From Malacoraja senta (taxonomy: Eukaryota): a DNA stretch of 64,000 nucleotides. The notes under the pieces were generated by a model. It was not told the DNA's origin. It did not search any database and saw only the letters and a program-made list of their open reading frames with translations. Every line of letters begins with the position of its first letter. Positions within the stretch are counted from its first letter, which is position 1. The stretch lies in NCBI GenBank assembly GCA_038087875.1, contig CM075989.1, positions 2,852,001-2,916,000 on the forward strand. Reading direction: 5' to 3'. Made by a program: the position numbers and the translations under genes. This document shows, piece after piece, positions 4,093 to 46,293 of the stretch.

Positions 4093-4696
4093 GTCCTAAT
4101 CCAACAGTGAAGAAGCAAACTTACACCCAATATTAATGTCAATTTTGAATCCACCCTAAATTAAAACAGCAATGAATACATGAAATATGGAGAATTAAAC
4201 AAAAACAAGATTAAGGAGTTGATGCAACAGTTGAGCAATTAGCTGGAGAAAGAGGTCTTTAATTTGGATTCAGGAACTCTCCAGAGATTCTCTGGCACAC
4301 ATAGAGAAGCAAATTTGTTTCATCAATCATTGGAATGTAGCCCTTCCTCATCGTTGGTAGCTGCCATCTGTGATCCAGGAAGCAAGAACGTAGTCTGTTA
4401 GCGTCGATGCCCATCTTATACACACATAATCTTTTAAAAATAGCAACATGGGCAAGAGCCTGATCTGAGGACCGTTTATTGGCAGATACTCATCAAACTA
4501 ATGGCAAAACAAACTGATACATTTGTCGCCCTTTCTATTCCTATTAAACGACTTACGTTCTCAACTAAAAACGCACAAAATGCGTAGGAAGGAACTGCAG
4601 ATGCTGGTTTACACCGAAGATAGACACGAAAAGCTGGAGTAACACAGCGGGCCAGCAGGCATCTCTGGAGAAAAGGAATAGGTGACGTTTCAGGTC

Positions 4697-4831
4697 TTCT
4701 TCTTGCGTATGGCGTGCACAGCCTAAAGTTGTAAGACAACTTGTTCTGTTTGATCTTCTGTTTGTGCACGCCAGGTTGATTGCATTCGTCGAAACAGGGT
4801 GGACCACGTGAAGGTTGCAATCTCCCACCCC
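4697..4831 (-). mobile_element. 135-bp non-autonomous retroelement: 5' HDV-like ribozyme, 3' stem-loop, (AAG)n tail
   Basis: Flanked by 10-bp TSD gtttcaggtc (4687-4696 / 4832-4841); 11-bp stem 4710-4720 / 4763-4773; ends ...ccatacgcaagaagaa on the minus strand. Confidence 0.8.
4778..4831 (-). ncRNA. Minimal HDV-like self-cleaving ribozyme (predicted)
   Basis: GGGGUGG GA GAUUGCA ACC UUCACGU GGU CCACCCU GU UUCG A CGAA UGCAAUC: P1 7 bp with G1-U wobble, P2 7 bp, P3 3 bp, L3 UUCACGU, catalytic-type CGAA J4/2, P4 nearly absent. Confidence 0.8.
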
Positions 4832-6239
4832 GTTTCAGGTCGAGACCTTTCTTAAGACGGAGAGTCATGGGAGATGGAAACGAGAGATATGAAAAAGTAT
4901 GAAAGAAAAAAAGCATGAAACCGCATTAAATCAAATATAAGGTCATAAGATCATGTGATAGGAATAGAATTAGGCCATTCAGCCCATCAAGTCTACTTTA
5001 CCATTCAATCATGGCTGATCTATCTCTCCCTCCTTAATTCCATTCTCCTGCCTTCTCCCCATTACCTCTGACACCCGTCAATATGGTCAACAATTTGGTG
5101 ATGTGACCCAACTTTCAAACAGCTTTTAAACTTCTGTACCAATACTCAATAGGATGAATTATTTCCATGTGAATATTTTTCATCTGTGCAAGGTCCACGT
5201 TATCACCATGGGATTATCGAGCTCACTACAGATGGAATGTAACATGTTTATCAGGCACATTCTAATTTGTCTCTCCACTCGAATGATCAATAGTCTAGAC
5301 CTCATTTTGCAACAAATACAACAATCCATGTTTTAGCTCAATGTCATTGTATAGTAAAAGAAAAAGACACAAAGTGCTGGAGTAACCCAGCAGGTCAGGC
5401 AGTATCTCTGGAGAACATGGATAGGTGACGTTTCAGGTCGGGTCCCTTCCAACATATCGCCTATCTATGTTCCCCAGAGATGCTGCCTGACCCGTTGAAT
5501 TACTCCAGCACTTTGTGTCTTTTTTTGTAAACCAGCATCTGCAGTTTCATGTGTCATTAATGGCCATTAGTGTGCCTGGTCCTAGAGTATACACACTCCT
5601 GAAGGGGACAATTCTACAAGGCTCTTCACAGATCCAAATCCATCCCGTCAGGCAGAGGGTTGAAATTCCAGGCGTTAATCCTGGGTCCTGGTATTGTCCG
5701 CACTTTGTCCATTCCAAATGGCCGCCCTGTTAGAGTCATAGAGTCATACAGTGTGAAAGCAGGCCCTTCGGCCCAACTTGCCCACACCGACCAACATGCC
5801 CCATCTACACTAGTCCCACCTGACTGTCATATAATCCCTTATATAATCCCATAATCCCTTTAAACCTATGTTATCCATGTGCCTGTCTAAATGTTTCTTA
5901 AATGTTGCAATAGTACTTGCCTCAGCTACCTCCTCCGGCAGCTCATTCCATACACCCACTACCTTTTGTATTATTCATGTCAAGCAACCAAAACATGTAT
6001 CCAGAAGATTCAATGTAATATTTTAGTTTGAACAGGTTGCCAACCATTTCTCGTGGCTAATGCTCTTGGAAACTGTAAATAATAGAAAATCAGGAACAGG
6101 GGAGCACTTGAGATATTTTTTTAAACAAATGATGCATTTATTTAAAGAGTGAGACTTCATGATGGAACTTTGTGAGGTCACAGCTGGAGGATACAGTGCC
6201 TAGCGGTCATTCACTTTCATGAAGAGATGTGATCATAAC

Positions 6240-41837: not shown

Positions 41838-44800
41838 TCACCCCGACATACTTGGGGCCCAGCATGGGTCTTTCCGCTTGAGCCAAATCCACCGGCTGCT
41901 TCTTTCAGCCGCCTCTGAGAGTGATCTTATGGTCTTCCGCAGAGCCTGACCGTGGATTCCAAGCTCCTTCAGCAGTCTGATGGTAGATGACGCAACAAAT
42001 CCTCTGCATCCCACTTCAACTGGATAGACTTTGGTGTTCCAGCCACGCTGCGTTGCCTCTGCTGCAAGCTCTGCGTAGCGCAGCTTCTTACGCTCATAGG
42101 CCTCCTCAACAGAGTTCTCCCATGGAACTGTGAGCTCTATGATGTAAGCAGTCTTCTGTGAAGGGGACCAGAACACCAAGTCTGGCCTGAGGGTGGTGGA
42201 AGCAATTTCAGGTGGAAAAATTAGTTGTCGGCCGATGTCCGCCAGCATCCTCCAGTCACGGGCCCTGCATTGGCTTCCTTCTTCTGATCTGGTGGAAGGA
42301 AGTTTAGAAGTTTTCTGTCCTTCTCGGACAAAGGTTATTACCCTTAGGGGAGGGTTGCTTGCTCTTGGAGGCAAGGAGTTGGCCGCACACCGCCTGTTCT
42401 CAAGGGCTGATGCCAGGCTTTTTAGTACCTGATTATGCCGCCACGTGTATCTCCCTTGCGTGAGGCTGGTCTTGCAGCCTACCATGATGTGTTTGAGGGT
42501 CGCTGGAGTTGGGCAGATGGCACAGGTTGGATCCTCGCCGTACCACTGATGGAGGTTCTTTGGTGATGGAAGCACGTCATATGTCGCTCTGATGATGAAG
42601 CTGATCTTGCTTGCTTCCATTTCCCATAGTTCTTTCCAGCTGATCTTCCTCCGCTCCACACCTTCCCACTGCATCCATTGCCCCTGTTTGGCAAGAGAGA
42701 CCGCCTTTGCACTTCTTGCGGCCTCCTCCTGTCGCCGCACCTCCTCAACCACCAACGTCCTCCGCTCTGATGTTGTGGCCTTTCGCCAAGTTGGTTTACT
42801 TGTCGTAAGGCCAAAGCCTCCTCTTCCCTGCTGGACTTGCCCCACTATGTCTTTGTGCCTCAGGGCTGATGAAGCTTGCTGTACTGCATCAGATGGTGTC
42901 CACTTCCGGCCAGTTGCTAGGGGCGGCGCAACAGCACTGATGATCTTGTCTCTAGAATCCCTCAGTGTCATCTGGAGTCTTACTTTAGAACACTTATATT
43001 CCTCTGTTAGACTAGTGAGAGGTAGTTCCAGGACCCCTTTGCCATAGAGGCCGATGTTAGTTAGACATCGTGGGACACCGAGCCATTTCTTCACGTATGA
43101 AGTTATGGTTCGCTCCATCTTCTCCACAGTTGTTATTGGGGCTTCATAAACGGTCAGTGGCCACATTGTCCGAGGAAGGAGTCCAAACTGTAGGCACCAG
43201 AGCTTCAGTTTCCCAGGCAGTAGGGTCTGATTGATGTTCTCCAGTCCATTGACAATTTCTTGCCTTAGTTGTTGCACCTGCTCTTTGTCCTTGAGACTTG
43301 CGTTATACCATCTTCCCAGGCTTTTAACTGGCTGCTCAGACACTGTTGGTATTGGGTCGTCACCAATACAGAACCTTGTGTCTCTAAGCACCCCCTTGAC
43401 TATGGAGATGCTTCGAGATTTACTTGGTTTGATTTTCATTCGGGCCCACTTGATGTTCTCCTGCAGCTTTCCAAGTAGCCGCTTGGTGCATGCTGCAGTA
43501 GTGGTTAGTGTTGTCATGTCGTCCATGTATGCCCTGATGGGTGGCAGACGGAGCCCAGCCCTGGTTCGTTCACCGCCCACCACCCATTTTGAGGCCCTGA
43601 TGATGACTTCCATGGCCATTGTAAAGGCCAAGGGTGAGACTGTGCAGCCTGCCATGATGCCTACTTCCAAGCGCTGCCATGTTGTACTGAAGTCAGCTGT
43701 TGTGAAGCACAGCTGCAGGTCTTGGTAATATTTCTTGACCAGTGTGGTGATGAGCTCTGGTACATGGAAAAAGGCAAAAGATTCCCAAAGGAGTTCATGG
43801 GGAACTGAACCAAATGCATTGGCCAGATCGAGGAAGATCACATGTAGGTCTCTCTTCTCCTTCTTAGCTGCTTGGATCTGGTGCCAGATCATGCTTGTAT
43901 GCTCCAAGCAGCCCGAAAATCCTGGAATTCCTGCTTTCTGTACAGATGTATCAATGTACTTGTTTGTTACCAGATAGGTGGACAGCCTTTGTGATACAAT
44001 GCTAAAAAAAGATTTTTCCCTCGACGTTGAGGAGACATATTGGCCGGAATTGGCTGATATCTGACGAATCCGTTTCTTTAGGTATTAGCACGCCGCCGGC
44101 CCTTCGCCAAGCCTTAGGTATTGTTTGCTTCTTCCACACCACCCTCATGAGCTTCCATAGAAAGCGTAACACATCTGGTGCGTTCTTATAGAGCTTGTAT
44201 GGTACTCCGTTTGGCCCCGGAGCTGATGCTGCTCTTGCTCGCCGGACCGTGTTCTCCACCTCTTTCCATCTCGGAGGGCTGGTGTCCATGTTGAATTCAG
44301 GTGGTTGAATAGGTGGGATGTCATGTGGGATGACCAACTGCTCATGCCTTTTCGTGTCTTTGTGGGCCTTTTCCAGGTGTTCCTCCAATTCCTGTTTTGA
44401 TGTTTTCAAAGTTCCACTTTTTTCCTTTGCGAAGAGGTCTTTGATGAACTTGAAAGGGTCTTTATAGAACCGTATTCTTGTGTGTTCTTTCTTCTTGCGA
44501 AGTTTCCTCAAGTTCTCTGCTTTTCGCAAGGTTGCCAATCGGTTCTTGATGTCCTCTTGGAGTAGCATGAGACCTTCTCTCTCTGCGTCAGTTGCTTTTT
44601 TCCATTGCTTTTTCAACTGTCTCCTCTCTCTGATTAGCCTCTCGATCTCCTGCTGCCTCCTGGACTTGATTGGTGTTGGTAATTTCTTTCCACCTCTCCC
44701 TTTACTCACCCCAAACCGTTCTTCTCCATAGCTGTAGATTGTGTTGCCCATCCTTTCAAGCTTTTCCACTGCTGTGCCCGTTTGTTGCTTCAAGATATGT

Positions 44801-45379
44801 ATAAGGTCACTGTTGACCGTCTCCCACTCTTTCTTTTCAACAGCCTTGGGCCATTTCACTCCAGGTTTGTGCCCTTTGATCTTTCCCTCCAATGGAGGTC
44901 TTTGTAGTTGTTGCGTGGGCTCCTCCACCGGCATTTCTGTGCTTGTATCACCCTCTTCAGTGACATGGGTGCTGATGCTCTGCGAACTTTGGTTTGTGTC
45001 CCCGTCGCTGTGCTTCACTCGACTGATTTGACTGGTTGCTTCGTAAGAAGTACTGGTCAATGCGAGGCCCATGTTTCTGCTCTCTCAAGCACTTTTTCTT
45101 CCCTTGGTGGATCTTCAAGCCCTTCACTGATGTTAATTTCTCCCAACCACAGATGCACACCTGAAGTTTGTGTCCCGCAGCTGTTGTGGATGTCTCATGT
45201 GCCATGCTCTCCTTGTCAGTAGTCGTTTCCGTTCCTGGGTCTGTAACCGTGTTATCAATCGGTGAGCCATCTTCCGCCCCCGCTCTCGCAGGCTCTAGGG
45301 GTATTCTCTTTATTTTACTTTTAGTAGCATTTAGCGGGTGTCTCCAACTAGCTGAAACAGCGTTGGGGACTGCTGTCAT
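41838..45379 (-). CDS. Zn finger / reverse transcriptase / CCHC / restriction-like endonuclease polyprotein (two +1 frameshifts; ~1179 aa if corrected)
   Basis: N-terminal 'CICG...GLKIHQGKKKC'; RT 'FRPICLLNVEGK', 'FLDLANAFGSV', 'GCTVSP', 'YMDD'; 'CAIC...KHIMVGC'; RLE 'RHNQV...RPDL...IELTVPWE...KKLRY'. Frames shift at the C4 run ~45000-45003 and the A7 run 44004-44010. Confidence 0.9.
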
Positions 45380-45638: not shown

Positions 45639-45781
45639 GGACAGTTGGGCACAGGACACATCATCAGTAGTGTACCCTTGCATCACTGGGTGTTTCGGCC
45701 TTTTAACACTATACACCCTCCACAAGGGCGGCCCGCTGCAGGATGATCAACCCTCAGCGCATGTCCCGTGTCAAACCGTCC
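45639..45781 (-). ncRNA. Permuted hammerhead-ribozyme-like structure, copy 2 (predicted)
   Basis: Identical to 41688-41830 (offset 3951). Confidence 0.6.
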
Positions 45782-46293
45782 CAAAGATTCACCCCGACAT
45801 ACTTGGGGCCCAGCATGGGTCTTTCCGCTTGAGCCAAATCCACCGGCTGCTTCTTTCAGCCGCCTCAGTGATCTTATGGTCTTCCGCAGAGCCTGACCGT
45901 GGATTCCAAGCTCCTTCAGCAGTCTGATGGTAGATGACGCAACAAATCCTCTGCATCCCACTTCAACTGGATAGACTTTGGTGTTCCAGCCACGCTGCGT
46001 TGCCTCTGCTGCAAGCTCTGCGTAGCGCAGCTTCTTACGCTCATAGGCCTCCTCAACAGAGTTCTCCCATGGAACTGTGAGCTCTATGATGTAAGCAGTC
46101 TTTGCACAAAAGAATGGTATATATATAGCAGTAAAGATTGGTAGAAAGGTGGAACAGGGGCACGTAGCCCCAGTGACCCAGGTTCAATCCTGACCTCTAG
46201 CGCTGTCTGTGTGGAGTTTACATGCTCTCCCTGTGGCAATGTTGGTTTCCTCCAACTTTCCAAAGCCCTATGAGCAAGGAGTTTTATTAATTA

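Follow-up and report, generated by a model that had tools for sequence, protein, structure and literature searches.

A 135-nt element on the minus strand of the window (4697..4831), by which we mean the whole stretch of 64,000 nucleotides of Malacoraja senta DNA analysed here, begins with what resembles a self-cleaving RNA and ends in an AAG tail. This raises the question of what kind of element it is and how so short a sequence could multiply. An earlier note, made from the sequence of the window, had described it as a mini-SINE consisting of a ribozyme head and a LINE-type tail. The analysis presented here identifies it as a non-autonomous element that arose by internal deletion from a Vingi-like LINE, with a predicted ribozyme that it shares with its parent.

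The head of the element is a predicted HDV-like ribozyme

The first 54 nt of the element (4778..4831, minus strand) fit the nested double pseudoknot of the HDV ribozyme, and every helix named in the earlier note was found at its place. P1 is formed by 4831-4825 with 4802-4796 and includes the G1-U36 wobble, J1/2 is GA, P2 pairs 4822-4816 with 4784-4778 and P3 pairs 4815-4813 with 4805-4803, while L3 reads UUCACGU and J4/2 reads CGAA (4788-4785). On the 3' side of P1, G37 is followed by a U-UUCG-A stub where P4 would be, and P1.1 consists of one pair only, G37 with C22. HDV-like ribozymes are marked by a pairing of G1 with a pyrimidine and by conserved U, C and G residues in L3 (U..C..G). The head has both of these, together with a catalytic C as the first residue of J4/2 and with perfect P1, P2 and P3 helices and the single P1.1 pair. 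Based on the fit to the descriptor and on the conservation of the fold, we predict that this minimal, P4-less head is an HDV-like ribozyme that cuts 5' of G1 (4831), with C44 (4788) as the predicted catalytic residue. As P1.1 has a single pair and P4 is missing, cleavage may be slow.

Our own strict HDV descriptor (no mismatch, at most two G-U pairs, J1/2 of up to 60 nt and P4 of up to 120 nt) returned one site in the window, the one described above, and no site in 150 dinucleotide shuffles of 63.8 kb, both strands being searched. Rfam gave no ribozyme match on the window copy at E<=10, only chance matches to miRNA and lncRNA models. With a looser descriptor, further HDV-like matches appeared at 41989 and 45936 (plus strand), which fail the strict descriptor and are probably due to chance. 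These two sites lie on the strand opposite to the coding end of another element of the window (41838-45084, minus strand, with a partial second copy at 45683-46183), which has long frames of 748 and 360 aa and, by reading of these frames, would be a non-LTR element of the site-specific type, with an RT followed by a restriction-like endonuclease.

The element belongs to a large family with a common 5' end

A 10-bp target-site duplication (TSD), GACCTGAAAC, adjoins G1 as previously noted. Its 5' copy lies at 4841-4832 (4832..4841, minus strand) and its 3' copy at 4696-4687 (4687..4696, minus strand), and it extends to 11 bp when the first G is included. The insertion interrupts a host repeat (4586..4860, right boundary approximate, minus strand) that is abundant and carries a decayed minimal motif of hammerhead-like appearance. 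The hammerhead label is our assumption, as is the Penelope type that we presume for the repeat, and Rfam returned no hammerhead match for it. The repeat accounts for 33 BLAST pieces in the window and was noticed at about 30 other places (e.g., 3788, 29724, 31845, 33454 and 36919), and six intact-looking CUGAAGA..GAAAC motifs of the same kind are present. One ribozyme-like motif sits within a decayed copy of another, a location that follows from the abundance of the repeat.

A search of the 1.94-Gb genome yielded 1,805 candidate copies. All 40 of the 40 that were scored are 98.5-100% identical to the window element, and three other copies are 100% identical to it. Exact patterns, whose counts are floors, matched 1,369 times for a 26-nt ribozyme core, 517 times for the J4/2 variant, at least 3,838 times for a 24-nt tail and 308 times for a 33-nt middle marker of the window's exact subtype, against none for the reversed-pattern controls. 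Three pairs of copies (L040/L041, L048/L049 and L033/L034) have identical flanks 2-56 kb apart; they are local or assembly duplicates and inflate the counts slightly. The set of copies compared in detail comprised 121 distinct ones after removal of duplicates, 99 of them full-length.

The earlier note had staked its reading on the existence of other copies that begin at G1 and preserve P1-P3, and many were found. When 30 copies were chosen by their tail alone, 26 had their first base within nt 1-6; of the other four, one began within the ribozyme, two proved to be short 3' stubs and the last was a LINE 3' end. Choosing 30 by their middle gave 26 with a 5' end at nt 1 and 29 with one within nt 1-4. 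TSDs of 10-15 bp flank 76 of the 99 distinct full-length copies as opposed to 2/99 swapped-flank controls, and in 57 of these 76 the duplication ends exactly at G1. The family thus has its own history of amplification, bearing the marks of target-primed reverse transcription in its TSDs and tail. Target-site specificity is ruled out, as the flanks of the copies are unrelated. A search of genome contigs gave 44 partial matches, and viral contigs gave no relatives. A shared insertion in other organisms was considered and is not taken as support: one contig reaches over the 5' junction, with 23 nt of the element, which is below our 31-nt bar.

The element joins the two ends of a Vingi-like LINE

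One match to the ribozyme core continued into an endonuclease frame and led us to a partner LINE of about 3.05 kb, which has the same head as the element, an ATG about 107 nt in and the same 3' end. Its single, broken reading frame contains APE (PF14529) and RT (PF00078) domains according to Pfam. The genome therefore holds a LINE that shares both termini with the element, as the earlier note had anticipated, and this LINE is Vingi-like. Nucleotides 1-79 of the element (4753..4831, minus strand) align to the 5' end of LINE copy L083 over 80 alignment columns, 5 of which are mismatches and one a gap. Nucleotides 93-135 (4697..4739, minus strand) are identical to the 3' end of LINE copy L115 at 40/43 positions and, by this alignment, comprise the final ORF codons and stop, a short 3' UTR and the AAG tail. 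The 13-nt junction filler between them, nt 80-92 (4740..4752, minus strand), aligns with neither LINE end; from the look of the sequence, it resembles a local duplication of the bases just before it.

Both extreme ends of the element are thus common to a LINE of the same genome and it has no ORF, which makes it a SIDE (bipartite non-autonomous LINE) in which the 5' end of a Vingi-like LINE has been fused to its 3' end. The reading given in the earlier note is right in its essentials, with some corrections. The proposed mini-SINE with a separate ribozyme head has to be replaced by an internal deletion. The loss of P4 that had been attributed to the short element also has to be moved back in time, as the P4-less form is already present in the LINE, from which the ribozyme is inherited. 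Three different types of deletion junction occur among the short copies, which indicates that the LINE middle was lost at least three times independently.

The head of a Pol III SINE derives from a small RNA and carries A and B boxes, and the head of this element is instead a LINE 5' UTR. A search with the standard A and B box motifs of Pol III promoters gave no good match in the element, the best having one mismatch and lying in the wrong places, and ARAGORN found no tRNA in the window; both agree with the earlier impression that no Pol III boxes are visible. This absence concerns Pol III boxes only, and the word 'promoterless' in the earlier note goes beyond it. The 11-bp stem and the inner 7-bp hairpin that had been noticed are both present in the predicted fold (whole-element z -1.7, from a program that cannot draw pseudoknots). 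The stem joins the two ends of the LINE, its 5' strand (4763..4773, minus strand) stemming from the 5' UTR and its 3' strand (4710..4720, minus strand) from the 3' UTR. The hairpin (4726..4742, minus strand) spans the deletion junction, and only about three of its pairs exist in the LINE 3' end.

The parent LINE is rare and the copies read are broken

We found only 44 candidates for the partner LINE in the genome, and none of the 14 stretches read out of these 44 is intact, all being broken. The short forms outnumber it roughly a hundredfold. Relatives of the parent LINE protein are single-ORF proteins of about 1,000 aa, the closest intact one (P0001) being 72% identical, 1,019 aa long and without an RNase H match. 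Vingi elements are described as having a single ORF of about 990 aa with APE and RT and without RNase H (PMC13708176, PMC3708506). The parent LINE shows this architecture, with a single ORF, APE and RT, and a relative lacking RNase H; as no named Vingi or Ingi reference is among its relatives, the label 'Vingi-like' rests on architecture and not on an RT tree. In the PDB, the only matches were distant RTs, those of L1, R2 and group II introns. The C-terminal part of the parent protein has no similarity to a fragment of the window that we take to be RTE-like.

Non-CpG divergence from the column majority is 3.3% for the LINE, 2.9-3.0% for the two older short subfamilies, 2.1% for the window's subtype and 1.7% for the most abundant subfamily, so that, by this measure, the last two subfamilies appear to be younger than the copies of the LINE. 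The genome contains four further Vingi-like LINE families (L230, L237, L241-L244, L246 and L248), with about 93-99% identity within a family and intact ORFs of 986-1,002 aa in L237, L241 and L243. The protein that served the last waves of short copies may have come from a LINE copy absent from the assembly or from one of these four sister families, which are younger and include two with intact ORFs.

The fold of the head is conserved within and between families

Within the element family, only three lineage-level changes were seen in nt 1-54, all of which spare the fold: one at nt 8 in J1/2, one at nt 45, a free J4/2 position (U or G), and A32G, which converts U5-A32 into a still paired U5-G32 and is carried by 22 of the 30 copies picked by their tail. 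C44 is kept in 84/87 aligned copies outside the best-match set, and all subfamilies retain the catalytic C, the L3 residues and the G1-U wobble. The same HDV-like fold heads four of the five Vingi-like families of the genome and three families from metagenome contigs. Across these seven families, 114 of 119 P1/P2/P3 cells are paired, 14 of 17 pairs show changes on both sides, J4/2 follows C-N-A-A in 7/7 and L3 is near-constant. In the six families other than that of the window, the fold is the same and the stems are different; their ribozymes are 68-85 nt long and have a P4, in contrast to the 54-nt, P4-less form of the window family. The Rfam CPEB3 model passes its gathering threshold on two of the sister loci, L242 (63.8 bits) and L134 (55.6 bits), both with P4, and this constitutes an independent check of the fold. 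Three of the five sister loci scanned gave no Rfam ribozyme match. The family of L237, of which one 5' end was seen, gave no HDV-like parse, unlike the other three sister families, and of 18 metagenome loci matched at the N-terminus, 9 show no such fold, several of them being truncated or more distant.

Several side observations concern these relatives. At the 5' ends of L241 and L243, the initial ~25 nt of the ribozyme occur 4-6 times in tandem ahead of the intact copy, which suggests repeated template slips at the 5' junction. The sister family V4 yielded only four exact core matches for short derivatives, which speaks against a burst of them in that family. The 3' ends of L237 and L239 share an 11-nt identity with element nt 8-18 (the J1/2-P2 strand), probably by chance. 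Pieces of a Vingi-like ORF (L260-L262, 40-44% identity) were met in an archaeal genome bin and are likely eukaryotic contamination.

Possible pairing between the two ends of the LINE

The end stem comprises 8 perfect pairs between the 5' UTR and 3' UTR in the LINE and the older derivatives and 11 bp in the window element. A61G and C59U, which mark the younger subfamilies, each create a pair where there had been a mismatch, although C59U may in part be decay, since the site lies in a CpG. In eight families, we compared the sequence just downstream of the ribozyme with that just upstream of the tail, pairing each 5' end with its own and with the other families' 3' ends. Own-family pairing exceeded cross-family pairing both by duplex energy in 35-nt windows (20 of 40,320 permutations) and by longest complement in 30-nt windows (p 0.003); without the two families that had prompted the comparison, the values were 8 of 720 and p 0.06, respectively. 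Three of the eight families have perfect end complements (8, 9 and 10 bp), compared with 8 bp in 2 of 56 cross pairs, and the remaining five families have complements of at most 6 bp. End pairing like that of the window family was found in two of the seven other families.

A rival reading is that the ends share direct similarity rather than pairing. The GTGCAC core of the end stem is palindromic, and direct repeats between the ends reached p 0.063 over the eight families, against 0.003 for complementarity, and 0.065 against 0.060 without the two prompting families. These sequences hint at end pairing in Vingi-like RNAs, which we regard as a lead and not as a result. Our tentative proposal, which we hold to be somewhat doubtful, is that the RNAs of Vingi-type LINEs loop, with the stretch after the ribozyme pairing with the 3' UTR 3 kb away and the paired end, rather than only the 3' tail, serving as the target of the protein. 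If true, such a clasp would explain why these LINEs give only two-ended parasites and why the stem has grown from 8 to 11 bp in those short forms that have multiplied most. On this view, the 135-nt element would represent a minimal template of natural origin, consisting of a P4-less ribozyme and an end clasp.

Discussion

We consider it quite likely that the element is a SIDE of a Vingi-like LINE, cut from host transcripts by its predicted ribozyme and recopied by the LINE protein. The precedents of L1Tc, R2 and RTE suggest how read-through, cleavage before G1 and mobilisation in trans could be combined. Copies would be transcribed by read-through from host promoters and the RNA would cleave itself 5' of G1, which would give every copy the same 5' end, whatever lies upstream. 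The APE-RT protein of the LINE would then recognise the 3' ~43 nt and the AAG tail in trans and insert the RNA by target-primed reverse transcription, and a full-length new copy, carrying the ribozyme again, would seed the next round. If two ends suffice in this manner, it can be understood that the LINE middle was lost repeatedly and that the short forms outnumber the LINE.

A uniform 5' end is also expected from an internal promoter. In L1Tc and NARTc, the same 77 nt act as ribozyme and internal promoter (PMC3383444), and the head of the window family could resemble this Pr77, combining a ribozyme with an internal Pol II promoter and dispensing with read-through. The dual role is established for these Ingi-clade elements (PMC3383444, PMC4035085), Vingi is described as sister to Ingi (PMC13708176), and the dispersal of thousands of copies calls for a dependable supply of RNA. 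However, the head is constrained as RNA pairing and its sequence varies widely between families, unlike a shared promoter motif, and we find an internal promoter unlikely. The RNA contigs available contain short pieces of the element, in which strand and start are not visible, and the sole run recorded as RNA holds 0.14 of the words.

Less likely still, the fold might no longer cut in the window family and might cap and protect the 5' end or bind a protein, with the ends set by transcription or reverse transcription. P4 is missing, P1.1 has one pair, Rfam has no match and a protective function of the HDV fold has been described for R2 templates (PMC13708176), but the conservation of the catalytic C, of the L3 residues and of the G1-U wobble in all subfamilies speaks against such a loss, and P4-less HDV-like ribozymes are reported to cleave in vitro (10.1101/2023.06.13.544163). 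An ordinary Pol III SINE, a MITE or a chance fold, to which the small size and the internal inverted repeat might point, is scarcely credible: there are neither tRNA nor A/B boxes, the TSDs vary in length, the tail is a microsatellite and the shuffles gave no descriptor match. These readings are already refuted by the alignment of both ends to the LINE and by the pairing kept across families.

The results extend predicted HDV-like ribozymes to Vingi-like LINEs and place a P4-less predicted ribozyme, which at 54 nt is cheap to assay, in thousands of copies of an animal genome. They also confine the cis-acting signals of such a LINE to about 120 nt; an RNA gene-writing platform is based on Vingi-1, with templates carrying both UTRs (PMC13708176). 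The possible end pairing makes testable Kojima's question of why few LINE clades yield bipartite parasites. Should cleavage take place in vivo, host transcripts could be affected by thousands of self-cutting sites within introns.

The ribozyme-bearing LINE clades named in section 23 of a 2018 survey do not include Vingi (PMC5786205), and ribozymes come up for R2 only in the review of the Vingi platform, as far as its text was available (PMC13708176). Our literature search, which covered papers, found no report of a Vingi ribozyme, of a P4-less retroelement ribozyme or of long-range pairing between LINE ends, and no paper on elasmobranchs with Vingi. An earlier notice of a Vingi ribozyme or of end pairing is possible. 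Some elements that today go by the name Vingi may be part of the 'Ingi' set of Kojima 2011 and Ruminski 2011.

Ribozyme-headed, internally deleted elements are already known, namely NARTc, RIME and the R2 SIDEs (PMC4035085, PMC3383444, PMC3414825), and what appears to be new here is a very small and very successful SIDE with a P4-less HDV-like predicted ribozyme. NARTc and RIME, from L1Tc and ingi of trypanosomes, are likewise two-ended derivatives of Ingi-group elements with an HDV-like ribozyme at nt +1 (PMC4035085, PMC3383444), whereas the predicted ribozyme of the window element has 54 nt instead of 77 and lacks P4, its host is an animal and its parent is without RNase H. The non-autonomous derivatives of Vingi-1_EE in the hedgehog, the 'bipartite non-autonomous LINEs', are also internally deleted forms of a Vingi element, many in number, and their account as cited in PMC5786205 mentions no end pairing. 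The R2 SIDEs of Drosophila similarly consist of a ribozyme and a 3' end, have several independent origins and depend on co-transcription (PMC3414825). They are specific to a site in rDNA and are called rare (PMC3414825), in contrast to the thousands of copies at unrelated sites in the window family. The closest likeness in the ribozyme itself is to the minimal HDV-like or theta ribozymes, which also have no P4 domain and carry the catalytic C first in J4/2; these have been traced to gut phages and tRNA processing (10.1101/2023.06.13.544163), whereas the one predicted here heads an animal retrotransposon.
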